DNA of 64,000 nt from Bacteroidota bacterium (lineage in GTDB: Bacteria > Bacteroidota > Bacteroidia > B-17B0 > Aurantibacillaceae). The stretch's first letter is position 1; every line of letters starts with the position of its first letter. The notes under the pieces were generated by a model. It was not told where the DNA came from and ran no database searches. It saw nothing but the letters and a program-made list of their open reading frames with translations. The stretch covers positions 1 to 64,000 of the forward strand of contig JADJSH010000010.1 in NCBI GenBank assembly GCA_016711805.1, in the 5' to 3' direction. Of this stretch, positions 2,891-63,650 are shown one piece after another. The position numbers and the translations under genes were made by a program.

Positions 2891-3185
2891 GCGGGCGTGC
2901 CGGCGCAAAGAGGCTGGCGCCGTCGGGCTGCCGTTACAAGCTTTTTGGACTTCGGGGCTTCGATACTTCGACAAGTTCAGTAACCATCTAAGCCACCTTC
3001 AGCTACCAAAAAGGCTTTCCACTTGCATCCCTCAAGCAAATTCACTATTAAATGCGAAGTTTTACTTTCAATTTACGGGATTAACTTGCGTTAAGGATTG
3101 TAGCGAAAATCCTTTTTTATGAGGCACGAATAAAAAAGATTGAAGCGTAAAGCCTGACCCGACCAAAGGAAGGGTAACGCCCAAA
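2891..3185. repeat. intergenic repeat family A copy (MITE/REP-like, GC-rich, terminal inverted repeats GGGCGTG...ACGCCC)
   Basis: Shares modules GGGCGTGCCGGCGCAAAG...GCGCCGTCGGGCTG and CTTGCATCCCTCA with copies at 6950, 17719, 19286, 22694, 58399 and 63441. Confidence 0.6.
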
Positions 3186-3230: not shown

Positions 3231-5600
3231 TTATTTAACCACCACCACTGGCTTAGTAGCCGAGCCTGCATTTGATGAAATTGTTACATAATACACCCCA
3301 GATTTGTAATCCGATAAGCTAATAGTGTGATTGAATGATTCGTTTAAAACAACCGTTTCTTGATACAATAGTCTTCCAGAAATATCTTTGATTTCGATTA
3401 AAGACTTATCAGCATTTTTAGTGAAACCTGTTAACTGAATCACATCATTTGCAGGATTTGGAATCACAGAGAAATAATGATTTTTATCAAGCATTTGCGA
3501 CACACCTGTTACTAAAAAGCAATTGTTAGCTACCACTTTATTAATGGCTTCGTAAGCTTTGTTTACTATTTCAATAGCACTATTGATGCAAATACTTCCA
3601 GAGCCATTTGTATAATAAATTCTACATAATGGTTGAGCTGTTAAATTTTTAGCAATCGTAGAATCTTTAAAGGATAAACAAATCACTTTATTACCACCAA
3701 TTAAAAAATCTGGCGTTTCAGGATACACATTTGTTGGAACTAAATTCACCACATTTAAAATAGTTGCGCCGCTAATGGTAAATTCATATCCTAAAACACG
3801 TGCCGTAGGATTTTGAATATATACATCAAAATAATTTTGAGAAACATCTACATTTCCAATGCTTAAAGTAGCTGTGTTATTTGGATTTATATTACCTCTT
3901 GGAAATAAACAATTTGTATTAATAGTTGAACCATGATTAACACAATTAGCCATTAAAGCGGCATCCCAAACGGTTATGGTTCCTGTATTATTCAAATCAT
4001 TACAACTATTAGCAGTAATACTTGTATTTAAAATTTGATTAATGTAAAGTTGACCATCTACTAATTGTTGAGTACCACTATTATTTAAATCGCCCATTTT
4101 TGCTGTTCCATTGCAAGTTCCGTTACAATCGATAGCCGCATTCCCAAATTGATTTCCGGCGCAATCAGAATATGAAGGGCAAGATGCTAATAAGGTAAAT
4201 CCTTTTTGACCAGAAGCATTGGCTGTAATTTTAATACAAGCTTGTGCCCAGTTATTTTGGTAATTACTTTCAAAATGCCCTAAAGCATCCGCCGATTGAT
4301 CCCAGTTAACTTTAGCTGCCATTACGTAATTCCCCGTATCTACATCCGTAATATCAATCCATTGGCACTCTAAACCAGCCGCATAAATATCTCCGCATTG
4401 TTTAGAGATTCCCATATTACCGCACGAAAACTTAGCTACTCCACCATCAGGGCAGCCATCAAAATCTAATACGCAAAAGCCGTTTTTAAATCCTATAGGA
4501 ATGGCTTGTCCGTTTGGTTTATATAAACGATACTCTGCATATCCTTCATAGTGTGCATGTCCGTGACAGTTGTTAGTTGTAAATTGTCCGGGATTAGTAC
4601 CAGGATCTCCTATATAATAATCTTGAGTTCCTATATTTTTTATGTATGTATCAAAATTAATTACCGTTCTAACTCCGTAACCATTTAAACAACTTTCAGT
4701 TACTCTACAATCGCCTGCTCCAGCATTTACGGTTCCTAAACTTAAGGAGCTAATAAATTGCGGTTGAACAATGGTTAAATCGGGCGCTGTGCATAATGGA
4801 CTTGGATAATACACACAACTACCATCATCGATAGTGGCTAATGGATTATAATTACATGCACTAAACGTCGTACAACCAGAAATTGGACCTTGATAATTAA
4901 TAGCAAAGTTAATCACCCCTGGACAAGAGTTATTATAAGATCCAACTCTAACAATATAGGTTTTTGATGTGTCTAAAGCACCCGATACTTCAGATTGCAA
5001 ACCACAGAAATCATCATTATACAAGATAGTTCCTGTATTATTAGTAGTAAAGGAACCATTGCAGTTATCGTACACCCATAATTTCGTGTCGCATGAACTT
5101 AATGAACAAGTAGATACTGTATACAGTCCTACTTGAGCCGGTTTAAATTTATAGAAATACTCATTACCTGGAGCTGTGTATGTACCTGTATTCACAGCAA
5201 TAGCCGTTTGGCAACTTTCGCCGGGTCCGCAATTAAAATAATAGGTATAAGTCCCACCAAACTGTCCGTTATTGTTCGTTTGTAAAACATTATTCACATA
5301 AATTTGAAAACTTCCGGCTCCATAATTACAGCAAATACCATCACCAAACGAATCGTTAATTACAAACGTTAAACAACCAGTTGATGCAACGCAAATTGTA
5401 CTGGTAGATGTTGTAGAATTGGTTAAAACACCATTCGACATTAACACCACACCAAATTTGTCTTTTAATTGCCAAGTGGTTTCAGCAGCATAATTATCAG
5501 TGGTTAAAACAACTTTCACTTCTATGCTACCACCTGGGCATTGACTAAAGATATTCAGAGAAGCTAAAAATAAAATAAGAGTAGTAAAGATATATTTCAT
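3231..5600 (-). CDS. T9SS-secreted multidomain protein with lysyl oxidase (LOX)-like copper amine oxidase catalytic domain
   Basis: Signal peptide. Internal segment [14 protein letters not shown]...[12 protein letters not shown]...[22 protein letters not shown] aligns with the animal LOX catalytic core (WHSCHQHYH copper site ... FCLEDTSC ... [21 protein letters not shown]). C-terminal Por_Secre_tail/T9SS sorting domain (…[23 protein letters not shown]). Confidence 0.75.
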   Translation of the reverse strand: [789 protein letters not shown]

Positions 5601-6914: not shown

Positions 6915-6949
6915 AAAAGGTTGTAAAATAATAAAGGTTTAAAGTGCTT

Positions 6950-7140
6950 GGGCGTGTCCCTGCGGGCCGGGCTGTCGGCACTCGCTTTTTATTTGTCCTG
7001 CGGAGCAAATAAAAGAGCTCAGACATATGCCGCTATCCCTCACGCAGGTTTTTATTAAGTTTGAAAGTAAAAGCTGCGCGAGGGATGAAAACAAAAAAGA
7101 TTGCAGTGACAGCGCAGTTCGGCTACCGCCGAACGCGCCC
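6950..7140. repeat. intergenic repeat family A copy
   Basis: GGGCGTGTCCCTGCGGGCCGGGCTGTCGGCACTCGC ... hairpin CCCTCACGCAGG/GCGCGAGGGATG ... CAGTGACAGCGCAGTTCGGCTACCGCCGAACGCGCCC; the mirror of the ends of the 22694-22936 copy. Confidence 0.6.
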
Positions 7141-8334: not shown

Positions 8335-8495
8335 GCAACACCCCTTGCATACGTTGGTAATAGTGCGGCTGGCTTTGGCGAAAGAGAGCGAACCGCCATT
8401 CAACGAAGCTTTTTTGCGGGGCCAATGGTGGTTGGTCTTTCGCCTTGACATTTTTGTTTCTTTTTTCGTCAAGGAAAAAAGAAAGAGTAGAAAAC
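8335..8495. repeat. intergenic repeat family C copy (5' motif CATACGTTGGTAATAGTGCGGCTG, 3' A/T-rich hairpin)
   Basis: 5' 24-mer nearly identical to the copy at 12868; ends in hairpin tttcttttttcgtcaaggaaaaaagaaa. Confidence 0.5.
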
Positions 8496-8594: not shown

Positions 8595-10532
8595 ATGAGC
8601 TATATTGTAGACTATTGGTGGGTAATTATTCCCATTATTTTATTAATCTCTTACAAACTAATTTTCCGTTTATTCGGAATCATTATTATCCCAGAAGATA
8701 AGATTGGATTAGTCACCAAAAAATTTGTGTTATTTGGTGCTAATAAGGAATTACCTGCAGGGCGTATTATTGCTATTGATGGTGAAGCTGGTTTTCAAGC
8801 ACAACCTCTTGCCCCAGGAATTTATTTTTGGAAATGGATTTGGCAATATGAAATTACTCAACAGTCGTTTACTGTTATTCCAGAAGGAAAAATTGGTTTA
8901 GTAGTAGCCAAAGATGGTAAACAATTAGAAACAGGTTTTATCTTAGCTCGTAAAGTAGATTGCGATTCATTTCAAGATTCTGAAGCCTTTTTAAGAAATG
9001 GCGGACGTAAAGGTCGCCAGTCGGCTATTATTACTGCTGGTACTTACCGTATCAATACTTTCTTATTTGAAATCAGTACTTACGACATGACTCATATTAA
9101 TGAGAATATGGTTGGTATTGTAACAACGATGGATGGTATGCCTATTGAAGAAGGCAACATTGCAGGTAAGCAAGTATTAGGACATAATAATTTCCAAGAT
9201 TGTGATGCTTTCTTAGAAGCTAATGGTAACAAAGGTTTACAGCCAGAGATTATTTTAGCAGGTTCATATTATTTAAATCCTTGGTTCATACAAGTTGAGC
9301 AAATTAAAATGACAGAGATTCCAATTGGTTATGTAGGTGTTGTTATTTCTTATGTAGGATCAGAAGGAAAAGATTTAAGTGGTACTGAATTTAAACACGG
9401 TAACATTGTGAGTAAAGGCGAAAAAGGTGTTTGGGCTGAGCCATTAGGGCCTGGTAAATATCCAGTAAATACATTTATTATGCGAGTGGAATTAGTACCA
9501 ACTACTAACTTAGTTTTAAACTGGGCAAATGCTCGCAGCGAATCACATCAATTAGATAAAAACTTATCGACTATTACAGTACGTTCAAAAGATGGTTTCC
9601 CTTTTAATTTAGATGTTTCTCAAATTATTCATATTCCAACAACGGAAGCACCAAAAGTAATTGCACGTTTTGGTAGCATGATGAATTTAGTTGGACAAGT
9701 ATTAGAACCAACTATTGGTAACTATTTCCGTAACTCGGCTCAAGATAGTGATGTGATTGCTTTCTTAAGCACTCGTAAAGAACGTCAGGATGCTGCTAAA
9801 TCAAAAATCAGTCAAGTGTTAGACCAATACAATGTGAATGGTGTTGATACTTTAATTGGAGACATTGTTCCACCAGAAAGCTTAATGAAAACATTAACCG
9901 ATCGTAAAATTGCCGAAGAGCAAAATACAACCTTTGAAACTCAAAAACGTGCCGAGGTAACTCGTCAGGCTTTAGAGAAAGAAACAGCGGTTGCTGATAT
10001 GCAAAAAGAAATTGTAAAAGCTGATCAAGGCGTATTAATCTCTGAACGTATTGCAGATGCTGCCGTTAAGAAAGCAACAGGTGAAGCGCAAAGTGTTAAG
10101 ATTTCTTCTAATGCAGAAGCAGATAGATTAAAGGTAATCGCAGCAGCTGATGCGGAGAAAACAAAATTATCAGCCAATGCAGAAGCAGAGAAAGTTAAAA
10201 TGCTAGCAAATGCAAATGCAGAGAAAATATCGGTAACCGGTACAGCCGAAGCACAAAGTATTTTAGCAGTAGGTAAATCAAATGCAGAATCTTACCGATT
10301 AGCAGTTGAAGCCATGGGTGGCGATAACTTCAGCCGCTTAAAAGTAACGGAAGCAATAGGTAAAGATAAAATCAAAGTGATTCCAGATGTATTAATTACT
10401 GGCGGTAACGGCGATGGAGCTAACGGTCCTATCAGCGGATTATTAGGATTAAAATTATTAGAAGAAGTATCAAAAAACATGGGTAAGAATGTAGAGGAGA
10501 AACCTCATACAGACACTGATACTAAAAAATAA
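8595..10532 (+). CDS. flotillin-like SPFH/band-7 domain protein (YqiK-like)
   Basis: N-terminal TM anchor, SPFH domain, long Ala/Glu-rich coiled-coil with EA repeats near the C-terminus; 645 aa. Confidence 0.8.
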   Translation: MSYIVDYWWVIIPIILLISYKLIFRLFGIIIIPEDKIGLVTKKFVLFGANKELPAGRIIAIDGEAGFQAQPLAPGIYFWKWIWQYEITQQSFTVIPEGKIGLVVAKDGKQLETGFILARKVDCDSFQDSEAFLRNGGRKGRQSAIITAGTYRINTFLFEISTYDMTHINENMVGIVTTMDGMPIEEGNIAGKQVLGHNNFQDCDAFLEANGNKGLQPEIILAGSYYLNPWFIQVEQIKMTEIPIGYVGVVISYVGSEGKDLSGTEFKHGNIVSKGEKGVWAEPLGPGKYPVNTFIMRVELVPTTNLVLNWANARSESHQLDKNLSTITVRSKDGFPFNLDVSQIIHIPTTEAPKVIARFGSMMNLVGQVLEPTIGNYFRNSAQDSDVIAFLSTRKERQDAAKSKISQVLDQYNVNGVDTLIGDIVPPESLMKTLTDRKIAEEQNTTFETQKRAEVTRQALEKETAVADMQKEIVKADQGVLISERIADAAVKKATGEAQSVKISSNAEADRLKVIAAADAEKTKLSANAEAEKVKMLANANAEKISVTGTAEAQSILAVGKSNAESYRLAVEAMGGDNFSRLKVTEAIGKDKIKVIPDVLITGGNGDGANGPISGLLGLKLLEEVSKNMGKNVEEKPHTDTDTKK

Positions 10533-10552
10533 TTGTGCATAACATTACCAAT

Positions 10553-10580
10553 TAAAAAGAGATAGCAATATCTCTTTTTT
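10553..10580 (+). terminator. rho-independent terminator after the flotillin gene
   Basis: Hairpin aaagagatagcaatatctcttt followed by a T-run. Confidence 0.55.
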
Positions 10581-10603
10581 TATTTTAGTAAACTATAAGA
10601 GCG

Positions 10604-10762
10604 CTTCTCGACTACGCTCGAAGTGACATAAATACTAAACTTTAGTTACATATTGAGCTTGTCAGTTCGAGCGTAGTCAAGAACCGATGTGAAAGAGTTA
10701 GCGAACCGAAGATAAAACAAAAAAGGATTTGTCAGTTCGAGCGTAGTCGAGAACCGAAGTAA
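10604..10762. repeat. intergenic repeat family B (palindromic 24-bp arms TTCTCGACTACGCTCGAAGTGACA / TGTCAGTTCGAGCGTAGTCGAGAA): full hairpin unit plus an extra half-arm
   Basis: An ~86-bp unit 10604-10689 that is identical to 11111-11196; an additional arm at 10730-10762. Confidence 0.7.
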
Positions 10763-10774
10763 GAATAAAACTAA

Positions 10775-11110
10775 ATGATAGTTAAATATTTATACGTTTA
10801 TATCATAAAATGTAATGATGGCACTTACTATACAGGAGTTACAAATAACATTGAAAAAAGACTAGTAGAACATAATGAAGGAATACATAAAGAATCATAT
10901 ACTTATTTTCGTAGGCCTGTTGAATTAGCATTTTGTGAATTATTTTCAGATTACAACTTAGCAATTCAATGGGAGAAAAAGATAAAAAAATGGAGTGCTA
11001 AAAAGAAAGAAGCTTTAATAAATTCGGATTGGAAAAGATTAATTGAAGAAGCAAAATGTAAAAACGAAACTTCTCATGAAATATATAATACAATAAGATT
11101 AAATAAATAA
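10775..11110 (+). CDS. GIY-YIG nuclease family protein (small, stand-alone)
   Basis: YVYIIKCNDGTYYTGVTNNIEKRLVEHN matches the GIY-(x10)-YIG motif with conserved R and H/E; 111 aa. Confidence 0.85.
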   Translation: MIVKYLYVYIIKCNDGTYYTGVTNNIEKRLVEHNEGIHKESYTYFRRPVELAFCELFSDYNLAIQWEKKIKKWSAKKKEALINSDWKRLIEEAKCKNETSHEIYNTIRLNK

Positions 11111-11196
11111 CTTCTCGACTACGCTCGAAGTGACATAAATACTAAACTTTAGTTACATATTGAGCTTGTCAGTTCGAGCGTAGTCGAGAACCGAAG
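11111..11196. repeat. intergenic repeat family B, full hairpin unit (direct repeat of 10604-10689)
   Basis: Identical 86-bp sequence cttctcgactacgctcgaagtgacataaatactaaactttagttacatattgagcttgtcagttcgagcgtagtcgagaaccgaag. Confidence 0.7.
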
Positions 11197-11207
11197 AAAA
11201 ATAAAAA

Positions 11208-11729
11208 ATGAATCACGAAATAATAATAGAAACCGAACGTTTAATAATAAGGGAACATGTCTTAAGTGACGCTCCGTTTTTCTTTACACTAAATTCAAAT
11301 TACAATGTTGTAAAATATACTGGAGACTCATCATTTAAAACGATTGAAGAAGCAGAAAAAATAGTTCAGTACGTCATGAACCAATATAAAGAAAATGGAT
11401 ACGGACGGTGGTTAGTGGCAGAGAAGGAAACTGGAAATCCCATAGGCTGGTGCGGTTTAAAATTCCATACAGATACAAAAGAAACTGACATAGGTTACCG
11501 ACTATTAGAAAGTGCTTGGGGAAAAGGTTACGCTACTGAATCGGCTAAAGCATGTATAGATTATGGATTCAATCATTTTAATTTAAATCGAATTATTGGT
11601 GACGCCATGAAGGAAAATACAGCATCTATTAATATATTCAAAAAATTGGGAATGACCTATTTAAAAGACAGTTTGCTTGATAATATAGAATCTGTTGTTT
11701 ACGAACTAAAAAAAGAAAATTACAAATAA
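11208..11729 (+). CDS. GNAT family N-acetyltransferase (RimJ/RimL-like)
   Basis: Acetyl-CoA binding region GWCGLKF...IGYRLLESAWGKGYATE; 173 aa. Confidence 0.8.
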   Translation: MNHEIIIETERLIIREHVLSDAPFFFTLNSNYNVVKYTGDSSFKTIEEAEKIVQYVMNQYKENGYGRWLVAEKETGNPIGWCGLKFHTDTKETDIGYRLLESAWGKGYATESAKACIDYGFNHFNLNRIIGDAMKENTASINIFKKLGMTYLKDSLLDNIESVVYELKKENYK

Positions 11730-11730
11730 G

Positions 11731-12858
11731 ATGCGCTTAACACAACGCCTTCAATTAATCAAATTAACCGTTCTTATTGGCTTGTTAGCGTCCATTATTT
11801 TAAGCCATCCTTTATGGGCAGGAGACAGATGGTTTCCAAAAACAACATTGATAGAAGATTATTTTGGAGTGCCCTACCCTTACGATTACATTCAATTTGC
11901 GGTTTTAATTTTACTCATCATATTTTCTTTTAGTACGCAAAAAAAGTTTCCAACTGTATTATTAATTTTATTTTCGGTGTATATGTGTTTTGATGATCAA
12001 AACCGTTTACAGCCATGGTTTTATAATTACATTTTAATCTTATTTATCTTATTATTTTATAGGCATCGTGTAGATGAACCTAACAATTACACCACGGTCT
12101 TTATTTCGCTGCAGTTGCTGGTGGCCTTGATTTACATCTTTAGTGGGATTCAAAAAATGAATTCTTCTTTTGTACCAGATACCTTTGAATGGATGATTAG
12201 TGCTTTTGATACGGTATTATCAAAACGACAGCTTGGCATCGTAACTAAATTTGGTTATGTAATTCCCTACTTCGAATTAAGTATTGGTGTATTATTACTC
12301 GTAAAGCAGTTTCGCTTTATTGTTGTTCCATTAGTAATCCTAATGCATATTTTAATTTTAATCATGTTAGGTCCAACTGGTAAATCCTATAACTCCGTAG
12401 TTTGGCCTTGGAATATCATCATGATAGCATTAATACTGCTGCTATTTGCTGACGTTAAACAAGAACGCTTTTTTGATATTTCCTTTTTATTTAAAGGATT
12501 GAGTTTTTATATCGTGATTACCTTAATGCTCATCTTCCCTATTTTTAGTTTAAATAACCAATACGATTCGTATTTATCAAGTTCATTATATTCATCAAAC
12601 TTAAATGAATGTCAGTTAATTTTAACGGACAAAGCCTATAATCGATTACCTAATGATCTTAAAGCATTTTGCACTACCAATGTTGATCACAATGTATTAT
12701 ATATTAAAAAATGGGTAGAAGAAGAACTAAACGTGCCATGCGTACCTGAGTACCGTATCTTTAGAAACGCTCATCATTATATTATTCAACTCACACAAAC
12801 TGATTTGAAAGAAGTTAAATTTAACTTTATTGAAAGAGAGAAATTAATTGAGTTTTAG
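11731..12858 (+). CDS. polytopic integral membrane protein of unknown function
   Basis: At least 8 hydrophobic segments; no catalytic motif recognised. Confidence 0.4.
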   Translation: MRLTQRLQLIKLTVLIGLLASIILSHPLWAGDRWFPKTTLIEDYFGVPYPYDYIQFAVLILLIIFSFSTQKKFPTVLLILFSVYMCFDDQNRLQPWFYNYILILFILLFYRHRVDEPNNYTTVFISLQLLVALIYIFSGIQKMNSSFVPDTFEWMISAFDTVLSKRQLGIVTKFGYVIPYFELSIGVLLLVKQFRFIVVPLVILMHILILIMLGPTGKSYNSVVWPWNIIMIALILLLFADVKQERFFDISFLFKGLSFYIVITLMLIFPIFSLNNQYDSYLSSSLYSSNLNECQLILTDKAYNRLPNDLKAFCTTNVDHNVLYIKKWVEEELNVPCVPEYRIFRNAHHYIIQLTQTDLKEVKFNFIEREKLIEF

Positions 12859-12867
12859 CAAATTTAT

Positions 12868-13065
12868 CATACGTTGGTAATGGTGCGGCTGATTTTGGCA
12901 ATTCGGTGCGAACTACAATTTTTTCGGTGGAATTGCGCTGACTTTTCGAGCGAGAAAAAGATTGGAGTTGGCGTTTCGTCTTGTCCTACGCACCTGCTCG
13001 CTCAATTGTGTGCTACACAATTGCCGTATTTCTTTTTGTTCAAGCAAAAAGAAAAAGAAAAGTAA
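12868..13065. repeat. intergenic repeat family C copy
   Basis: Starts CATACGTTGGTAATGGTGCGGCTG; contains AAAAGATTGGAGTTGGCG and the terminal hairpin tttctttttgttcaagcaaaaagaaaaagaaa. Confidence 0.5.
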
Positions 13066-13098
13066 AATTTTGGTACATTTACTTTACAATTTATTTAC

Positions 13099-15470: not shown

Positions 15471-15488
15471 TATTATTTTTTTAGGTTT

Positions 15489-15564
15489 TGTCAGTTCGAG
15501 CGTAGTCGAGAACTAGACAAATTAAATTTTATTAGGACACATCTCGACTACGCTCGATGTGACA
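15489..15564. repeat. intergenic repeat family B hairpin unit
   Basis: TGTCAGTTCGAGCGTAGTCGAGAAC ... ATCTCGACTACGCTCGATGTGACA inverted arms. Confidence 0.65.
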
Positions 15565-15616
15565 TACTGTGTGTATATCCGCAAAAATTTACGTCATATG
15601 CGGGCAAAATTAATTC

Positions 15617-17690: not shown

Positions 17691-17718
17691 GTTGTAAAGT
17701 TAATCTTTTTTATTAGTT

Positions 17719-17852
17719 GGGCGTATCGGCGCAAAAGAGGCAGCGCCGTCGGGCTGACCCGCTTCAATCTTTTTGTTGCTCCTACGCTGCAGCTTCGGCG
17801 CAAGCGTAAAGGAACACAAAAAGGATTTTCGCTCGCATCCCTTACGCAGGTA
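17719..17852. repeat. intergenic repeat family A copy (left half only)
   Basis: GGGCGTATCGGCGCAAAAGAGGCAGCGCCGTCGGGCTGACCCGCT...CGCTCGCATCCCTTACGCAGG. Confidence 0.6.
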
Positions 17853-17893
17853 ATGCAAAAAAAATATTACATTTAAATTCTAAAACTAAAAAC

Positions 17894-19191: not shown

Positions 19192-19285
19192 TTTTACTTT
19201 CTGATTCCTTTATTTTTAATTTATATAGATGTGTCTGCAAGCTAGACCAATTCAGGTATAAAACATGCCTCTATTTTGATGTAAG

Positions 19286-19395
19286 CATGCTTGAGGGATG
19301 CAAGTGAAAATCCTTTTGTGAGGCACGAACAAAAGATTGCAGCGACAGCCCGACGGCGCTTGTTATTTGCGCCGGCAAGCCCAACAATTTAAAAC
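19286..19395. repeat. intergenic repeat family A copy (partial, opposite orientation)
   Basis: Reverse complement matches GGGCTTGCCGGCGCAAATAACAAGCGCCGTCGGGCTGTCGCTGCAATCTTTTG...GGATTTTCACTTGCATCCCTCAAGC. Confidence 0.6.
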
Positions 19396-19399
19396 ATTC

Positions 19400-22693: not shown

Positions 22694-22936
22694 GGGCTTG
22701 CCGGCGCAAAGAACAAGCGCCGTCGGGCTGTCGCTACAATCTTTGCAAAAGGCAGGCAAAGGATTTACGCTTGCATCCCTCACGCGAGTCTCATATTCAA
22801 ATTCGAAATATAGACTTCGATTATTGAAAAGCTAACTCGCGTGAGGGATTGAGGCGTTTGTTTGAGCTCTTTTTATTTATCCATCGGATAAATAAAAAAG
22901 CGAGTGCCGAAAGCCCGACCCGCAGGGACACGCCCA
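22694..22936. repeat. intergenic repeat family A, full-length copy
   Basis: GGGCTTGCCGGCGCAAAGAACAAGCGCCGTCGGGCTG ... long hairpin CGCTTGCATCCCTCACGCGAGT(loop)ACTCGCGTGAGGGAT ... GCGAGTGCCGAAAGCCCGACCCGCAGGGACACGCCC. Confidence 0.7.
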
Positions 22937-22950
22937 ATCATTAAAAAAAT

Positions 22951-25900
22951 TTACCCAACATTTTTGGCAACATAAATAATATTAGAAGTGAGTTTAGTTG
23001 TATCTAATACTTCTAACGTTAAATGAGGATGCTTAGCAATGGTATCTTTAATTAAAGTTCCACTCACAAAGTGTAAACCATCGGTCTTAGTTTTATTAAA
23101 ACCAAATACTTTGGTGCTCATAAACTCGGTGTACCAAGTTCCTTTTTGGCGAGTAGCAATGTCTTTATCCGCATCACGAATCACCAACACACCACCTTTA
23201 TTTAATTTAGACACGCAATTTTCAATCACTTGAATTTGTTGCTCTTCTTTTAAATAATGTAAGACATCGCTGATAATAAATCCGTCCGCTTGAGGAAAAT
23301 CAAATACAGTGACATCACCCACAGCAAAAGAAAGCTTATCTGATTTGTCTATACAACCATCAGCCACCGCAATTTTTTCATCATCATAATCAACGCCTAA
23401 AATTTCGCGGTTACGTCCCTTGAACATTAACATATAAGGCAAGAAACCATAACCACAGCCTACATCCACAATTTTTCCAGTTTTAGGCATTAGGCTTTCA
23501 AACAATTGATAATTATTTTCTAAGCCAGTTTTAATGCGACAGTACCATTCTAACACAGGTCCTTTAAAAATATAATTTCGAATTAAACGAGAACGGAAGT
23601 AGCCAACGGTTTCTTTTTCTTGTTTTAATAAGTCGTATTCTTTGCGCATTAACTTACAAATAGCTTTGGTGCGTTCTTGGTATGTCGCTCCAAAAGAAGT
23701 ATCCGTCGGTTTAATGCGTTCTAATAATTTAACCGTTAAAGAACCATCTTTAAAATGAAAATCACCTTTAGTTACCGTATCCCCTGCTCCATGTAATAAT
23801 AAAGGAACAATATCCAATTGCATTTGTTCTGCTAATAAAAAGGCGCCTTTATGGAAACGCAAAATATCACCTGTCACGCTGCGTGTTCCTTCAGGGAAAA
23901 TTAAAATAGAATAACCTTGTTTTACTAATTCGGTTAACGACGGAATACATTTTTCGTAACCATCCGAAGCACGGTAATAATCAGCTTTCTTTACAATCCA
24001 CCCGTAAAAAGGAGAATTGTAAACCCAATCGTTTGTAAAGACAACAATTTTAGGATATAGCTGTAACGTTAGCGCTAAATCAATATGCGATTGATGGTTG
24101 GAAATAATGATCGCTGGTTTTTCAAACGTTTCGTTGTGTGGATTTACAATTGTTTTTTTGACATTGAAAAAGCAAGCCAAAATAAAACGGAACGTGTACA
24201 TAATGATATAATGAAATATCAATTTACGAGTAGCTGTTTTGGCTGGGAAGATTGTAAATAGTAAAGCACCACAAATTGTAATCAACAATGACCCTACAAC
24301 AAAACCAAAAAAGCCAACAACCGTAATTAAAATGTATTTAGCAGTAAATGGCAGCAAGCCTTTATTTCTTCGATTTAAAACCAACCAATTAAATAATAAT
24401 GGTTGTGCGATAAAAGAAATAAAAACAACACACAACATACCAATTAACGTAATCAAAGCAATAGATTGCAAAGCAGGATGTTTAGCAAATACCATCACTC
24501 CTATTCCTATAATAGTAACTAAAGCTGATAAGAGAATAGATGATTTAAAAGAGTTCAATGTTTTTTTACCAAACTTATATTCGTTAAGTAAGCCATCCAT
24601 GATAAAAATACTGTAATCGTCTCCCAAACCAAAAATAAAAGTTGAGATGATGATATTAATGATATTGAATTTAATACCAAATATGCCCATGATTCCTAAA
24701 ATCCACAACCAACTAATTAACATAGGTAAGAAGTTAATCACTGCTAATTCAATACGTCCGTGATTTAACAACATAAAGCCAAATACCAAAATAGAAGTAA
24801 TCATTAAAATGGTATTGAAATCAGAACTGATCACTTCAACAAACTTTGAAGTCAGATTTTGTTTATCAAATACCACAATGTTTGGATTGGATTCAAAGGC
24901 TTTATAAATCAATTCTCTATTCTCAGCATCCACTTTTACATGGTTAATAATAGACGGCTTACCATTTACTTTCCCAATCCATTCTTTAAACAAATATTTA
25001 TTCAACGAATCCGAATCGGCCTGAGATAATTTAGAAACAGGATTATCTAATAAATTGTAAAACGATTGAAAAGCGGTTTCTTTAAACTTAAAATTCAATC
25101 CTGTAGCAATTAATTGTTGTTTTAAACTATCTTTTTTAGCTTGGTTAAAGAATTTATTCCAACGGTTAATACGCACTTCTTGTTCTTTGTCAGACATAAA
25201 CAAGGCACTTACCGAAGAATATTTTTTAATAAGACCTTGTTGCTTTAATGCCTCTAACTTTTCTGAAACAACCGTGTTATTATCTAAAGCTTCGTTTAAT
25301 GTATTTCCGTTACTAAATACGTAAACCGAACGCGCGGCAAAATTATTAACTTCATCTAAATGTTTTTCAGCATCACGAGTTTCTTTGGTCATGAAACTCA
25401 TTTTGTTCATGTCACTTTCAAATTCAACATCACCTGCAAAAAATGTAAATACAATGGTTAAGATGAAAGCAGAAATTACAATTACTTTGTTTTTATCAAA
25501 ACGATAAGCCGTAAATCTATCAATCCATGAATGTGGAGCTTCATCCGTCTCAACATGCTCTTTTTCTTTTCTGAAACTAAATTTTAATAATTGAGGCAAG
25601 ACAAAAATAGAGAACAACATCGCTCCTATCAACGAAAAGGCCGCAAACAAACCAAAATCATGTAGCGCTTCTGACTTAGCAAATAATAAACTTAAAAAAG
25701 CACCAACGGTGGTTGTACAGCCAATTAACATGGGCACGGTTAAATCTTGTAAAACTGTTTTTACATCTCGTGTATGTTTGTAATGCGTAAAAAAATGTAA
25801 GGAATAATTAATGGCAATACCCAATACCACCGCCCCTGCTCCTATAGCAATGGCAGAGACAACACCTTTTAATAAAAACAAAAAGCTTAAGGCAAATGCC

Positions 25901-38006: not shown

Positions 38007-38113
38007 ATAGAATTAATAAAATCAAAAAAAATAGTATTAACTTGTAACTAATTAAAATACAATTAAATATACAGATAATGTAAAAATGACTATTGCCATG
38101 TAAAAAAACAGTA

Positions 38114-38121
38114 TAAATTTG
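38114..38121 (+). promoter_or_regulatory. -7 promoter element TAnnTTTG for the small-lipoprotein operon
   Basis: TAAATTTG ~26 bp upstream of the ATG at 38147. Confidence 0.35.
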
Positions 38122-38146
38122 TACTAAACTAGAATAATTAAAACAA

Positions 38147-38347
38147 ATGAAAAAAATTACTTTACTTACAGCTGTTATTATATCGGCATCTTTAGCGTCA
38201 TGCAAAAAAAACTGGGTTTGTCAATGCTCTGACTCTAACGGCGAATTAGCGTTTGAAGCTCGTTCTCAAAAAATGAAAAAAAACGATGCAAAAACATGGT
38301 GCACCAAAGGGAATGATGAATCAGACTATACCTGTGAACTTAAATAA
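38147..38347 (+). CDS. small 4-Cys lipoprotein, paralog 1
   Basis: Lipobox LASC; mature part CKKNWVCQC...KKNDAKTWC...YTCELK. Stop overlaps the next start (TAATG). Confidence 0.6.
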   Translation: MKKITLLTAVIISASLASCKKNWVCQCSDSNGELAFEARSQKMKKNDAKTWCTKGNDESDYTCELK

Positions 38348-38538
38348 TGAAAAAATCAATCTTCGTTTTGGTTGTTGCTATTTTTAGCTTAACATCTTGT
38401 AAAAAAGATAGAGTTTGCTCTTGTTCTTATCAAGATGGGACAGTTGTTTCGGAAAATACTTACAAAAATGTAACTCGAAAAGAAGCAAAAACTTATTGTG
38501 TAAGTGCAAACCAAAGTGTGTCTTGTTCTATAAAATAA
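38347..38538 (+). CDS. small 4-Cys lipoprotein, paralog 2
   Basis: Lipobox LTSC; CKKDRVCSC...RKEAKTYC...VSCSIK. Confidence 0.6.
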   Translation: MKKSIFVLVVAIFSLTSCKKDRVCSCSYQDGTVVSENTYKNVTRKEAKTYCVSANQSVSCSIK

Positions 38539-38691
38539 ACGTTCTTCTTGTTATAATTACTTTCAATCATGGGATAAATAAGCATAGTTTTCTTATTTAG
38601 AACAACTATAAATATCAAAATACCCAGTATTGGGTATACAGATATTGAAAAAAAGTATTTAAATTTGCCTAAACTTTAAAAAAACAAAAAA

Positions 38692-38925
38692 ATGAAAAAA
38701 ATTACTTTGTTAGCAGCTGTTGTTATCGCAGCTTCTTTTGCTTCTTGCAAAAAAGACTACACTTGTGTTTGTACTGTACCTGCTAGCAGCTCTTCTTACT
38801 ATGCTGGAACTTCTTACACTTACGATTTAGGTAAAATCAAAAAGAAAGATGCAAAAGCTTCTTGTGATGCAGCTGGTGCAACTTGGATTAATTTAGGTGG
38901 TACTTGCGAAGAAAAAGTTAAATAA
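38692..38925 (+). CDS. small 4-Cys lipoprotein, paralog 3
   Basis: Lipobox FASC; CKKDYTCVC...KKDAKASC...GTCEEKVK; own TAAATTTG -7 element at 38660-38667 and terminator downstream. Confidence 0.6.
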   Translation: MKKITLLAAVVIAASFASCKKDYTCVCTVPASSSSYYAGTSYTYDLGKIKKKDAKASCDAAGATWINLGGTCEEKVK

Positions 38926-38943
38926 TTTTTAACTCTTTAAAAA

Positions 38944-38978
38944 AAAGGTCATTATCTCAGATAATGACCTTTTTTTTT
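38944..38978 (+). terminator. rho-independent terminator
   Basis: aaaaggtcattatctcagataatgaccttttttttt. Confidence 0.65.
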
Positions 38979-39089
38979 GCTTTTTATGACTTTTATCAAG
39001 AAAATATTTTTAATAATTACCCTCCAGTGGGTATCAAATATGTAAAAAGTTTGTATACATTTGTACTATAAACTTTAAAAACTAAAAAA

Positions 39090-39389
39090 ATGAAAAAAAT
39101 CACTTTATTAGCAGTTGCTTTTGTAGCATTAACTGCAGTTTCTTGCAAAAAAGACAGAACTTGTACTTGCAAAACTACAACAAGTAGTGTAAGCGTTAGC
39201 AACACTTCTGGTTCTACTTCGTACAACGGTCCATTTGCTTCTGATGAAGATAAAATGACTATGACTAAAGTTTCTAAAAAAGCTGCAGCAGCAAACTGTG
39301 TTTCTGGTGACAATGTTAATACTAACGTTTCTTCATCTGGTAACACTACTACAACTACTACAACTAAAAAAGATTGTTCTTTAAGCTAG
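39090..39389 (+). CDS. small 4-Cys lipoprotein, paralog 4 (Thr/Ser-rich)
   Basis: Lipobox AVSC; CKKDRTCTC...KKAAAANC...KKDCSLS; TACATTTG -7 element at 39055-39062; terminator gaaagctaccaaattggtagctttttttt at 39398-39430. Confidence 0.6.
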   Translation: MKKITLLAVAFVALTAVSCKKDRTCTCKTTTSSVSVSNTSGSTSYNGPFASDEDKMTMTKVSKKAAAANCVSGDNVNTNVSSSGNTTTTTTTKKDCSLS

Positions 39390-48611: not shown

Positions 48612-51017
48612 CTATTTCTTAAACTCTACTTTCATTTCTACACGACGGTTTTTCTGACGTCCTTCTGGTGTATTATTATCAGCAATTGGCACTGCTTGTC
48701 CAAACCACTCAGCAATTACTTTATCAGCTTTTACGCCTTTGCTTACTAAGTATTTTTTAACTGCCTTCGCACGTTTTTCAGAAAGCATCAAGTTCTTAGT
48801 TGGGTCACCTTGGTTATCTGTATGTCCAGATAACTTCAAGGTCCAATCAGCAGCATGCTCTTTCATTAATTTTGCTAAGTCGTTTAACGATGGTAATGAA
48901 ACTGGCTTAATAATATCTTTACCAGTTGCAAACTCTAAACTAGAGAAAGCACGTTCAAGAATTTTTTGCTCTTCTACTTTTAATACTGGAGCTGGAGGAC
49001 ATCCTTTTAACTCTTTTAAACCTGGAGTTGTAGGGCAATCATCTTCTCTATCCACTACTCCATCTTTATCTGTATCAATCCAAGGGCAACCTTTATTTTC
49101 AACTGCACCAACAACATCTGGGCAATTATCATCTTTATCTAACACGGTATCTCCATCTCTATCAGGGCAACCTTTAAATTCTTTAGGTCCTGCAACATCA
49201 GGGCAAGAATCGTACTTATCTGGTGTTTTATCGCCATCTCTATCAGGGCAGCCTAAAAACTCCGCTAAACCTGCGTCATCCGGACACTCATCTTCTTTAT
49301 CTGTAATTTTATCTCCATCTTTATCAGGACAGCCTTTAAAATCAACCAATCCTTTATCATCTGGGCAATTATCTTCTAAATCAGTAATGCCATCTCCATC
49401 TCTATCAGGACAACCTTGTAATTCTTTAGTACCTGCAACATCTGGGCATTTATCTTCGCTATCCTGAATATGATCTCCATCTTTATCAGGACAACCCATA
49501 AACTCCCAAGTTCCCGGTATGTCTTTACACTTATCTTTTTTATTGGAAACTTCATCCTTATCTCTATCTTTTGGTTTGCCATAAGGAATAGGCAATTTCA
49601 ACATGGCATAAATATCCGCGCCGTAAATTGTTTTTTGTCCTACTAACGGTGCTAAGTTGGATGAACCAACTACTATTGGCCCTAACCTAACTGCAGCTCC
49701 TGCTCTAAAGCCATCCAAAAAATTATATTGAATTGGAATAAATATACCAGCCCACTTCCAATCGTAACGAGGTGTTAAAGTAATGCTACTAATATCATGT
49801 ACTTTCGTGTCATTATTTTTAAACTGCATGGCAATAAAAGGCGTTAAGTTTACATAGAAATCTTTCCAAACTTGATAATCAATTTGAGCACTGATGGCAG
49901 TTGGTAAATTCATTTTGTAAAACGATTTTGATCCTGTTTGAGTAAATCGACCTTTTAATGTATCATCAAACTCACCGACAGATTGTGGATCAATTGGCTT
50001 TAGATTCCAATAACCAACATTTGCTTGAAAATCTCCACTAGTGCTTCCTTTTTTAAATTTGATAGATCCTAAATCAGTAACCGAAAATCCAACTTTTAAT
50101 TTGTATTTATTTTTGTCTTTACGCCATAAATCTTTCTCACCATCCATATTGTATTTATATTTTAAATACGAAGGACGCCATTCATACACAACACCAAAAT
50201 CAAAACCAACACCAGGATAAGATTGACTATAATCAAACACCTTAGTTCCAGTGTTACTTTCGCCGACTTTTAAATCCTTAAAGGTTAAATTATCAGAGTG
50301 ACCGTAATTTACCTCTGATTGAAAAATAGATAAAGTGGTATCTGTTTGAAAATTATATTCTAAATCTTTTACAAACATATAAGCCGATTGAATACCTTGT
50401 AATAATTTTACAGTTACTCCACCTTTAAAATAATGTTCGTTATCTTCTTTAAATACATGAGCATAAGTTAAACCATATTCTGCCCAGGTCATTTCTTGAA
50501 TACTTAGATTTTTATTTTGAAGATTAGTAACCCATAAAGATGGATACTTAAATTCCTCGTAAGCTAGCTTTGCTAAATCAGGAGAGATTCCGTCGATATT
50601 GATATAATTTCTAATACTAGAGGAAATAGCAATAGCATTTTTTCTGTTTATTGGAATCATAAATGATGGTCCAGCAATACGGTTAGTTAAATAAATGCTT
50701 TTATTTCTTCCATTAATACGTTCGGTTAAATATTTGTCAGCAAATAATGTATCGTCAAAAGCAGGCAAAGTTGTTTTACCATCTGCATCTTTGGCTCTTT
50801 TAAAGGCCGAACGATCTATTCCAATATAGTTGTTATAAAAACCAATATTTAAACCAACTAAATTCATATCAAATTTCATACGACCATCTACAATACTAGC
50901 TGGCTGTTGATAGATTCCAGTTACGCCGGCATAATTACTTTGATTAAATCCCACAAAATCTTGAGATTGAGCAAAATAACTAAAAGATAAAGCGGCAAAA
51001 AGTAATAATTTCTTCAT
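48612..51017 (-). CDS. OmpA-family outer-membrane protein with thrombospondin type-3 (calcium-binding) repeats
   Basis: Signal peptide, N-terminal beta-barrel-like region, ~10 tandem DKDGD...CPD TSP3 repeats, C-terminal OmpA domain (...SGHTDNQGDPTKNLMLSEKRAKAV...NRRVE). Confidence 0.85.
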   Translation of the reverse strand: MKKLLLFAALSFSYFAQSQDFVGFNQSNYAGVTGIYQQPASIVDGRMKFDMNLVGLNIGFYNNYIGIDRSAFKRAKDADGKTTLPAFDDTLFADKYLTERINGRNKSIYLTNRIAGPSFMIPINRKNAIAISSSIRNYINIDGISPDLAKLAYEEFKYPSLWVTNLQNKNLSIQEMTWAEYGLTYAHVFKEDNEHYFKGGVTVKLLQGIQSAYMFVKDLEYNFQTDTTLSIFQSEVNYGHSDNLTFKDLKVGESNTGTKVFDYSQSYPGVGFDFGVVYEWRPSYLKYKYNMDGEKDLWRKDKNKYKLKVGFSVTDLGSIKFKKGSTSGDFQANVGYWNLKPIDPQSVGEFDDTLKGRFTQTGSKSFYKMNLPTAISAQIDYQVWKDFYVNLTPFIAMQFKNNDTKVHDISSITLTPRYDWKWAGIFIPIQYNFLDGFRAGAAVRLGPIVVGSSNLAPLVGQKTIYGADIYAMLKLPIPYGKPKDRDKDEVSNKKDKCKDIPGTWEFMGCPDKDGDHIQDSEDKCPDVAGTKELQGCPDRDGDGITDLEDNCPDDKGLVDFKGCPDKDGDKITDKEDECPDDAGLAEFLGCPDRDGDKTPDKYDSCPDVAGPKEFKGCPDRDGDTVLDKDDNCPDVVGAVENKGCPWIDTDKDGVVDREDDCPTTPGLKELKGCPPAPVLKVEEQKILERAFSSLEFATGKDIIKPVSLPSLNDLAKLMKEHAADWTLKLSGHTDNQGDPTKNLMLSEKRAKAVKKYLVSKGVKADKVIAEWFGQAVPIADNNTPEGRQKNRRVEMKVEFKK
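48950..49560. repeat. in-frame tandem repeats encoding thrombospondin type-3 motifs inside the OmpA-family gene
   Basis: Recurring ~69-75-bp units (gggcaa/cctttaaa.tc...ccatctctatcaggaca). Confidence 0.6.
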
Positions 51018-53106: not shown

Positions 53107-53124
53107 GTGCTAAGTATAATATGA

Positions 53125-53197
53125 CTCTTCGAGCTTAGTCGTGAAGTGTTCTTAATGAGGCCTTTATTGTTCTCGACTACGCTAGCACTGACAAGCC
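53125..53197. repeat. intergenic repeat family B copy (degenerate)
   Basis: CTCTTCGAGCTTAGTCGTGAAGTG ... TTCTCGACTACGCTAGCACTGACAAGCC. Confidence 0.55.
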
Positions 53198-56859: not shown

Positions 56860-56895
56860 CCGCTGGTTAGTGGATGGCTTTATTGTTTTATTCTA

Positions 56896-56922
56896 GCTTG
56901 TCTTCGACTACGCTCAGACAGC
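56896..56922. repeat. intergenic repeat family B, single degenerate arm
   Basis: CTTGTCTTCGACTACGCTCAGACAGCG. Confidence 0.4.
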
Positions 56923-56927
56923 GAAAA

Positions 56928-58316: not shown

Positions 58317-58398
58317 AGTGTGTTTAATTTAGTGGTGCTAATATAAAGTTTTTTTTATTTGTTTGGTATGAAAGGGTTAGATATTTAAGTAATTATTA

Positions 58399-58636
58399 GG
58401 GCGTGCCGGCACAAAAAAGACAGTGCCGTCGGGCTTACCCGCTGCAATCTTTTTGTAAAGGAACACAAAATGGATTTCCGCTTGCATCCCTCACGTAAAT
58501 TTAAAGTAAATACGAAGTTTAAACCCCAAATTTGAAATTACATCTGCGCGAGGGATGCAAACGAAAATCCTTTTAGGAACGAAGTGAGTAAAAGATTGTA
58601 GTGACAGCCCAGTTTGGCTACCGCCAAACGCGCCCT
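58399..58636. repeat. intergenic repeat family A, full-length copy
   Basis: GGGCGTGCCGGCACAAAAAAGACAGTGCCGTCGGGCTTACCCGCTGCAATCTTT ... hairpin CGCTTGCATCCCTCACG(loop)CGCGAGGGATGCAAACG ... GTGACAGCCCAGTTTGGCTACCGCCAAACGCGCCC. Confidence 0.7.
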
Positions 58637-63440: not shown

Positions 63441-63650
63441 GCGGACCTCCTTTTTACCCTGCGTACAAAAAAAGTAAACAATGCCTCAATCCCTCACGCA
63501 AATTTTACTTTTAAATTGAAACTTATGCTTCGATCTTACAAAGAGCCAGCGTTAGGGATTGTAGTGAAAATCCTATTACGGAACAAAGTGAAGTAAAAGA
63601 TTGCAACGAAAAGCCCGACCATCCAGCTGGCGGGAACGCCCAAATCATAA
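63441..63650. repeat. intergenic repeat family A copy (diverged)
   Basis: hairpin CAATCCCTCACGC(loop)GCGTTAGGGATTG; right end AAAAGATTGCAACGAAAAGCCCGACC...GGGAACGCCC. Confidence 0.55.

Follow-up and report, generated by a model that had tools for sequence, protein, structure and literature searches.

A UPF0213-like GIY-YIG nuclease gene of Bacteroidota flanked by oriented hairpin units, and its probable kinship in function with Ssn modules

Small single-domain GIY-YIG nucleases accompanied by hairpin repeats have been described as the Ssn family (CDD cd10448), of which the proteins of about 94 aa are encoded by genes flanked at both 5′ and 3′ sides by such repeats (Chenal et al., Nat Commun 2025, PMC11893778). 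We analysed a 64,000-nucleotide stretch of DNA from an uncultured, Flavobacteria-like member of the Bacteroidota (contig JADJSH010000010.1, positions 1 to 64,000; hereafter the window), in which the gene for a 111-aa GIY-YIG protein is bracketed by short hairpin units, and compared this locus with Ssn and with other related systems.

In Neisseria the repeat is named NTS and has the sequence CGTCATTCCCGCGMAVGCGGGAATCYRG, while the general form is named SRM and was found nearby in 71% of homologues. The hairpin is bound by Ssn solely in single-stranded DNA (ssDNA), and the cut is made a few nucleotides upstream of it, on one strand only. The complementary strand stays uncut, double-stranded DNA (dsDNA) and RNA are not acted upon, and RNA is not bound. 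Cleavage depends most on the bases just 5′ of the palindrome, the TCA of CGTCA. The NTS-ssnA-NTS arrangement was likened both to an insertion sequence (IS) and to the repetitive extragenic palindromic (REP) sequences with their REP-associated tyrosine transposases (RAYT), the mobility of Ssn modules being left as a hypothesis. Neisseria SsnA modulates transformation, and domestication was proposed by the authors (all from PMC11893778). Neither Bacteroidota nor UPF0213 is mentioned in the main text of that paper, and our literature search found no Ssn follow-up covering either of them. The literature on GIY-YIG proteins together with REP/RAYT, REPIN, miniature inverted-repeat transposable elements (MITEs), YhbQ or COG2827 gave nothing relevant. 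The set of nuclease, flanking hairpins and comparison with REP/RAYT is already published for Ssn. What appears to be new here is the UPF0213-like branch of the protein, a hairpin dialect missed by the published motif, its breadth in Bacteroidota, and evidence of recent gain and loss of the module.

The hairpin unit and its association with the nuclease gene

Homologues of the window gene were confirmed at no fewer than 559 loci in GTDB species-representative genomes, and 80 loci from Flavobacteriia, Sphingobacteriia, Chitinophagia, Bacteroidia and Cytophagia were fetched. For counting, a strict unit was defined by a perfect 4-bp stem around GAGC...GNCGA. A total of 227 strict units was detected in the 80 homologous loci and none in shuffled sequences. 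Full 3-kb flanks were available for 58 loci, and of the 183 units in these, 142 (78%) were located within 250 nt of the open reading frame (ORF), a zone that makes up 13% of the sequence. The units were also oriented. A unit on the gene strand ('+') was present within 250 nt upstream in 56 of the 80 loci, a unit of the opposite strand ('−') was present at the stop codon (−45 to +150 nt) in 46, and both were present together in 40. Within 150 nt of the ORF, 60 '+' and 12 '−' units were counted upstream, as against 54 '−' and 29 '+' units downstream. In most of the remaining loci, weaker dialect units were recovered by a covariance model (R1).

The same arrangement was detected in the protein sequences. 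Tails of the homologues (SRLRSK*, LDYARPD and LDSARSN at the C-terminus, and MCQFERSREP at the N-terminus; alignment A4) are hairpin arms translated in frame, indicating that an arm upstream and an arm at the stop codon are conserved in the family. Many of the homologue representatives of 130-160 aa probably have mis-called start codons. Outside Bacteroidota, a 44%-identical homologue was found in Sphingomonas parapaucimobilis (NZ_CP155752.1; locus L091, 1300-1815) with GAGCGAAGTCGA units upstream and inside its 3′ end, and hence this variant is not confined to Bacteroidota. The Sphingomonas gene overlaps a downstream RNA methyltransferase gene, recalling yazA-rsmI of Bacillales. The co-localisation of hairpin and gene, for which the first-pass annotation of the window had proposed a census, was thus kept in homologous loci across Bacteroidota and reached Sphingomonas.

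For the reverse view, 80 metagenome loci were chosen by hairpin sequence alone, with a search pattern common to many taxa. The nuclease homologue was absent from 77 of these loci; 3 carried one, and in 2 of them it was located within 300 nt. Most copies are accordingly solo units or inverted doublets at a distance from nuclease genes. This excess of gene-less copies agrees with the REP/RAYT-like pattern suggested for the locus at first reading. Units were rarer in coding sequence, only 25% lying inside long ORFs, which span 75% of the sequence.

In the window, a direct repeat of 91 nt (10604-10694 and 11111-11201) brackets the gene. Bracketing by one and the same repeat had been annotated beforehand and was observed, while the description of the two copies as identical was overstated: they share 96% identity, the upstream copy carrying one mismatch in its second arm (CAAGAA for CGAGAA). 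As also described beforehand, each copy consists of two inverted 24-nt arms, with an AT-rich loop of 31 nt between them, and an extra arm is present at 10730-10753, upstream of the gene. When up to 3 mismatches were allowed, 8 arms were found in the window, and none in 100 dinucleotide-preserving shuffles. The covariance model gave 8 strong sites (E<1e-7) and one decayed pair (53121-53194), as listed in Table 1. Arms annotated away from the gene at about 15.5, 53.1 and 56.9 kb were all recovered, and all of these solo units are intergenic. The sequence of unit B is TTGTCAGTTCGAGCGTAGTCGAGAACCG. No Rfam family was detected for the hairpin, either by a scan of the window at gathering thresholds or by a permissive scan of 10500-11300, and a terminator scan gave no terminator-like site and no T-tract at the units.

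Each arm of about 24 nt is a small hairpin in its own right and is the functional unit; in the 86-nt palindrome, two such units are joined head to head. The palindrome as a whole had been taken as the element, and this proposal had to be abandoned. The solo pair at 15.5 kb is arranged B-loop-A, opposite to the A-loop-B order of the pairs beside the gene, which already shows that the arm is the unit; in other genomes, single arms, tandem arms and doublets with unrelated loops are kept. The covariation of the stem within each arm leads to the same conclusion.

The design of the unit was read from every exact GAGCGNAGNCGA, the invariant 12-mer, in the 80 homologous loci. It consists of 5′-(T)GTCA, a stem of 4-8 bp that varies between species, the invariant GAGCGNAGTCGA and the complementary stem, in all about 24-32 nt; the formula may also be written as TGTCA-stem-GAGCGTAGTCGA-stem. 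The stems differ between species and remain complementary, for instance gttc/gaac, cttc/gaag, caccct/agggtg and catgct/agcatg. For 109 distinct units picked by core sequence alone, pairing at the four loop-proximal stem positions reached 95-98%, and each of them had 3-5 pair types. The covariation score was 0.652, as compared with 0.244 for shuffled sets (0 of 500 reached the observed score) and 0.11-0.19 when the partner columns were slid. The 5′ GTCA was kept in 190 of the 227 units (84%), although pairing with its 3′ partner occurred in only about half of the cases, indicating that GTCA is conserved as sequence and not as structure. Divergent subfamilies use dialects of the form GAGC-N(2-15)-GTCGA, chiefly GAGCYTGTCGA and GAGCGRTAGTCGA. 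A plausible depiction of the core comprises tandem sheared G·A pairs, a G-C pair from which a T bulges out, and a mini-loop of the CGNAG or CYTG type. Motifs of these sorts are very stable in DNA, and would fit a DNA rather than an RNA substrate.

Arrays of units were also observed in other genomes beside nuclease genes or doublets, either as whole units in tandem, repeating every 27, 44 or 74 nt, or as partial units (GAGCGTAGTCGAGAACC)n. Whole or partial arrays are located at 3411-3486 of L016, at 2868-2977 and 3382-3490 of L033, at 2510-2941 of L017, and downstream of doublets in L105, L118 and L139. The remnant at 10696-10728 of the window resembles one partial unit of these arrays. In a metagenome-assembled genome (MAG) of Maribellus (Bacteroidota; L044), a near-perfect Neisseria-type NTS (CGTCATTCCCGCGTAGGCGGGAATCTAC, − strand) stands beside a dRS3-like ATTCCC-N8-GGGAAT at 4120-4190. 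This site is about 850 nt from a UPF0213-like nuclease gene with its own GAGCG..GTCGA units, and thus two hairpin dialects are present in one genome.

Table 1. Features of the GIY-YIG locus and of the dispersed hairpin units in the window
Feature	Position	Strand	Evidence
GIY-YIG nuclease gene, single-domain, UPF0213-like / Ssn-like, 111 aa	10775..11110	+	Pfam, PDB, hhalign, AlphaFold2
Inserted module (hairpin units and GIY-YIG gene), 618 nt, between Band_7 terminator and GNAT start codon	10590..11207	.	Empty sites, strain comparison
Hairpin unit A1, outer, left arm of upstream doublet	10598..10629	-	Covariance model 41.5 bits, E=3e-10; arm search
Hairpin unit B1, right arm of upstream doublet, one mismatch in core-proximal stem (CAAGAA)	10659..10690	+	Covariance model 33.8 bits, E=8e-8
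Partial-unit tail remnant (GTTAGCGAACCGAAGATAAAAC...)	10696..10728	+	Direct-repeat family D3, 81% identity to tail after B3
Hairpin unit B2, inner, ends 15-20 nt ahead of GIY-YIG start codon	10729..10760	+	Covariance model 42.9 bits
Hairpin unit A2, inner, abuts GIY-YIG stop codon	11105..11136	-	Covariance model 43.5 bits
Hairpin unit B3, outer, 10 nt ahead of GNAT start codon	11166..11197	+	Covariance model 43.4 bits
Solo doublet, inside insert of ~128 nt at 15482..15610	15488..15519; 15534..15565	+; -	Covariance model, E ~1e-10
Decayed doublet between two convergent genes	53121..53194		Covariance model 10.9 bits (+), 17.4 bits (-); arm matches with 2 mismatches
Solo single unit, 3 nt 3′ of a gene's stop codon, without 5′ GTCA	56894..56925	-	Covariance model 33.6 bits, E=9e-8

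Comparison of the protein and its repeat with Ssn, UPF0213 and REP/RAYT

The 111-aa product carries a single Pfam GIY-YIG domain (PF01541) at residues 7-78 (E=9.9e-18). The nearest solved structures, both of UPF0213, are PDB 1ZG2 (E=1.4e-12) and 1YWL (E=3.2e-10). An AlphaFold2 model (pLDDT 85.6) gave one domain of the order b-b-a-b-a-a-a with the GIY-YIG fold, and in a Foldseek search with this model UPF0213 structures stood on top, with Slx1 as matches 3-12. Neither Pfam nor the model indicated a DNA-binding domain beyond the catalytic core. No specific NCBIfam family matched the protein, and a second GIY-YIG paralogue was not found within the window. In the homologue alignment A4, Y9, Y19, R29, H33 and E67 are conserved, Y9, Y19 and E67 being invariant or nearly so. 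The motif YT..RRPV is common to the window protein and UPF0213 proteins.

A canonical Ssn group (A6; 95-aa proteins) was retrieved with a probe sequence. Its member P0127, which is flanked by textbook NTS sites, was used as a proxy for Nm SsnA; it showed 36% identity to the window protein (E=4e-10, 79% coverage). By hhalign, the group and the window family matched with 98.6% probability (E=1e-15, 89 columns), and Y9, Y19 and E67 were aligned with the conserved Tyr/Tyr/Glu of the group, equivalent to Y6, Y17 and E64 of Nm SsnA. The two systems share a single-domain GIY-YIG protein of about 95-110 aa with an aligned catalytic triplet, a gene flanked 5′ and 3′ by short hairpins with an oriented 5′ (C/T)GTCA and a GCGNAG-type tip, and many more solo copies dispersed between genes. 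They differ in the repeat and in its arrangement. The Ssn repeat is a long perfect palindrome, whereas the unit described here has a short covarying stem around an invariant GAGC...GTCGA core of 11-13 nt; and the flanking units are inverted here, whereas in L093, the canonical example, both point the same way.

By sequence and fold the window protein is closest to UPF0213, represented by YazA of Bacillus subtilis, BH0048 of B. halodurans (1ZG2), EF2693 of Enterococcus faecalis (1YWL) and the YhbQ type of Escherichia coli. To our knowledge no cognate repeat has been known for UPF0213, and in contrast to the operon-embedded genes of Bacillales the window gene is a free-standing insertion between a Band_7 gene and a GNAT gene, with hairpins. 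By analogy, the window clade would combine UPF0213-like sequence with Ssn-like behaviour. The same GIY-YIG subfold is found in SLX1, which acts on branched or hairpin DNA. However, SLX1 is eukaryotic, has an extra RING/PHD domain, needs SLX4, and is neither sequence-specific nor associated with a repeat family.

The arrangement is also similar to that of REPtrons and REPINs, in that a single-copy nuclease-type gene stands between inverted, oriented hairpins with a conserved 5′ tetranucleotide. As for REP sequences, gene-less copies number in the hundreds, often form inverted doublets, are mostly intergenic, and are polymorphic in insertion between strains. The tetranucleotide is GTCA here, as against GTAG in REP. 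RAYT is an HUH/Y1 transposase (IS200/IS605-like), which forms covalent intermediates and can rejoin DNA, whereas the window gene encodes a hydrolytic GIY-YIG protein.

Gain and loss of the module among relatives

The module is located between a Band_7 gene with its terminator upstream and a GNAT gene downstream. Through orthologues of the GNAT gene, empty sites were identified in relatives. In L214 (GNAT identity 88%) and L217 (65%), only 6 nt separate the stop codon and terminator of Band_7 from the start codon of GNAT; L215 (83%) and L216 (74%) were likewise empty. Neither hairpin nor nuclease gene was present at the Band_7-GNAT site in any of these four relatives. The module was present in the window, in L219 (77%) and in the contig of P0003 (69%). 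On the contig of L217, a nuclease gene of 85% identity was found about 10 kb from the empty site, between unrelated genes. This copy (L218) is minimal, consisting of a unit, 9 nt, the ORF and a unit overlapping the stop codon, with TGA inside GTGACA (3300-3340). This minimal form of about 385 nt is bounded by inverted units in the order B-gene-A, 5′-TGTCA...TGACA-3′.

At the closest empty site (L214, 3501-3530), the GNAT gene starts with ATGAATGCACGTAGTCGATTA. The 9-mer CGTAGTCGA in this gene is the same as the 3′ part of the unit core, and corresponds to 6 nt inserted with respect to the window. This could be a footprint, or a partial unit inserted in coding sequence.

The window locus recurs in two MAGs (GCA_964269415.1 and GCA_020049755.1) and in several metagenomes from JGI. 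In ten strain loci, the module differed from the window at 1 of 618 nt, with no difference in the ORF. The flanks of these loci showed 23 differences in 790 nt and 27 in 793 nt (50/1583, about 3%) and several haplotypes, the nearest differences being at 10551 and 11234. The expected number of differences for 618 nt is about 19 (Poisson p ~7e-8). The insert carrying the solo doublet (Table 1) was also polymorphic, being absent from L001, L003, L004 and L005 and present in L002. A comparison of relatives for presence and absence, as recommended in the first-pass annotation, accordingly gave polymorphism for both the gene module and the solo doublet, between relatives or strains.

Proposed action of the nuclease, alternatives and other repeats

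We consider it likely that the GIY-YIG protein is a small nuclease working like Ssn, with the units of 24-32 nt as its cognate recognition sites, and that the module and its inverted units form an IS-like block that is gained and lost together; this estimate is a joint one for both statements. By analogy with Ssn, binding and cleavage by the window nuclease would be specific for ssDNA. A unit that has folded into a hairpin within ssDNA would be bound by the protein in a single orientation, and the nick would fall a few nucleotides 5′ of GTCA. The oriented GTCA flank is common to the units described here and to Neisseria NTS, where CGTCA is needed for cleavage (PMC11893778). Given the inverted arrangement of the flanking units, each strand would be nicked once, at a predicted site beyond the ends of the module. 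Host repair synthesis or recombination could subsequently duplicate or relocate the module as well as its gene-less derivatives. The spread of units would in that case be caused by the nuclease itself, and single units and doublets would be its more numerous dispersed derivatives, as REP and REPIN are to RAYT. A role at the level of the host, such as the restriction of incoming ssDNA with the motif, after the example of SsnA in Neisseria transformation, would be compatible with this proposal and not exclusive of it.

Several observations weigh against the proposal. When nearest-neighbour DNA parameters were applied, folding of the single units from this genome was weak (−1.5 to −6.5 kcal/mol) and for the most part no better than that of shuffles. 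The doublets gave long perfect hairpins (−27 and −21 kcal/mol, z about −8), in which the small ones would be concealed. Because single units fold weakly, the structure at the level of the unit rests on covariation and not on energy. When the loop type was compared with the protein clade, 49 of 69 nearest neighbours shared the type, and a permutation test on mean identity was not significant; in view of this partial co-clustering, strict co-evolution is not claimed. The family hidden Markov model (HMM) gave YazA 72 bits and a Radiobacillus UPF0213 protein 77 bits, and canonical Ssn a mean of 49 bits. As these scores stand nearer to UPF0213, the window clade, judged by sequence, probably lies outside cd10448, and for this branch the activity is one predicted by homology to Ssn. 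In Bacillus and Radiobacillus, the UPF0213 genes overlap their neighbours within a trmNF-yazA-rsmI operon, and hairpins are lacking from their flanks. The published SRM consensus, HGTCWYN(0-2)YYVSBRHN(0-5)WNVSBRGN(0-2)RNCYNB, had 0 matches in the window and 0 in L091. In the 80 homologous loci it had 1 match, the unrelated NTS-type site in L044, and it does match the NTS and flanks of canonical P0127. The low divergence of the module is partly biased, as identity of the protein sequence was the criterion by which the strain loci were retrieved; this bias does not account for the missing synonymous changes or for the near-unchanged non-coding part of the insert. A clear target-site duplication was not found in the window or at 15482-15610, the sole candidate being an imperfect, AT-rich TACAAT/TATAAT (6 nt) at the junctions in L219. 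Finally, a hydrolytic GIY-YIG nuclease cannot join DNA, so that spread needs repair or recombination by the host, and this is the weakest step.

Among the alternatives, it is possible, though on balance doubtful, that the gene is domesticated and serves the host in vertically inherited genome maintenance, such as the processing of ssDNA at forks or the control of foreign ssDNA uptake, the units being spread otherwise and the module not being mobile itself. The nearest relatives in sequence, UPF0213, are operon-embedded housekeeping genes, and SsnA of Neisseria, for which domestication was proposed, is a modulator of transformation (PMC11893778). Occupation by the gene of one and the same Band_7-GNAT site in lineages with a GNAT identity of only 69-77% might be due to ancient vertical inheritance with later losses. 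Yet occupancy of the site is patchy and does not track GNAT identity (present at 100%, 77% and 69%; absent at 88%, 83%, 74% and 65%), one genome carries a close copy at another locus, and the module is near-identical among strains with flanks about 3% apart. The last pattern, with divergence far below that of the flanks and boundaries near the module edges, is typical of homing genes, and the GIY-YIG fold is that of I-TevI and Seg proteins. A classical homing endonuclease would cut dsDNA at a hairpin or doublet marking the empty allele, the gene being copied in by double-strand-break repair, and the near-identical doublets that flank the gene might be read in that sense. Such homing, with the hairpin as target as had been suggested at first, is nevertheless unlikely. 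No hairpin whatever is present in the four empty sites of this locus, the protein is of one domain without a DNA-binding domain outside the catalytic core, and canonical relatives cut neither dsDNA nor the complementary strand (PMC11893778). Homing into a pre-existing doublet, or Campbell-type integration at it, was considered because doublets flank the gene as direct repeats in the window and in L044, and is not supported at this site, since the empty sites are without a doublet.

A true cut-and-paste or copy-and-paste transposon, with the inverted units as terminal inverted repeats and the GIY-YIG protein as transposase, is likewise improbable. We know of no strand transfer by GIY-YIG enzymes, which hydrolyse DNA. 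The inverted boundaries of the minimal module in L218, the possible 6-nt duplication at the L219 junctions and the resemblance of gene-less doublets to MITEs are in its favour, but the candidate duplication is imperfect and AT-rich with none visible in the window, and units also occur singly and in tandem arrays. Least probable is a role of the hairpins at the level of RNA, as terminators, mRNA stabilisers or a small RNA, with their adjacency to the nuclease gene being incidental. Units and doublets are indeed intergenic, often just past stop codons, and doublets would make very stable stem-loops. Against this, the units stand in both orientations relative to neighbouring genes, lack T-tracts, terminator-like matches and an Rfam family, and are concentrated around one protein family in 80 genomes, which cannot be incidental; in addition, Ssn relatives do not bind RNA (PMC11893778).

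If the Ssn-like reading is true, the arrangement of nuclease and hairpin extends past the Ssn clade to a UPF0213-like branch that is abundant in Bacteroidota, and a testable substrate hypothesis is given for the long-uncharacterised UPF0213 group. The pair of enzyme and site, TGTCA-stem-GAGCGNAGTCGA-stem, would be a new and sharply defined one for a family being developed as site-specific ssDNA-cutting tools. The empty sites, the polymorphism between strains and the near-zero divergence of the module would be comparative evidence on the mobility of such modules, and translated hairpins would explain the recurrent spurious tails (QFERSREP, SRLRSK, LDSARSD) on annotated proteins of Bacteroidota. 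More tentatively, the UPF0213-like clade of Bacteroidota and some Alphaproteobacteria might represent an autonomous, currently active selfish element of a hitherto undescribed kind. Its module of about 385 nt, a hydrolytic ssDNA nickase with two inverted hairpins, would spread itself and gene-less doublets by nick-primed copying or recombination without a transposase, sweeping through populations into the same site.

The window also carries a tmRNA and two matches to the Rfam Flavo-1 RNA. A second family of GC-rich intergenic repeats, about 100-200 nt long, was observed at 3010-3163, 6932-7047, 17712-17862, 19194-19397, 22694-22953, 58392-58511 and 63540-63624. This family overlaps both Flavo-1 matches, and its copy at 19194-19397 is absent from L004 and L005, which suggests that Flavo-1 may be part of a mobile repeat. 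A third intergenic insert polymorphic between strains, at 12858-13082, is absent from L002 and L010, and a segment of 53 nt in it is 77% identical to 8348-8400. In addition, an 81-nt tandem repeat within a long ORF, with at least 4 copies of 65-72% identity, and three paralogous small genes with similar lipoprotein-like signal peptides were found, listed together at 49065-49506 and 38103-39169.

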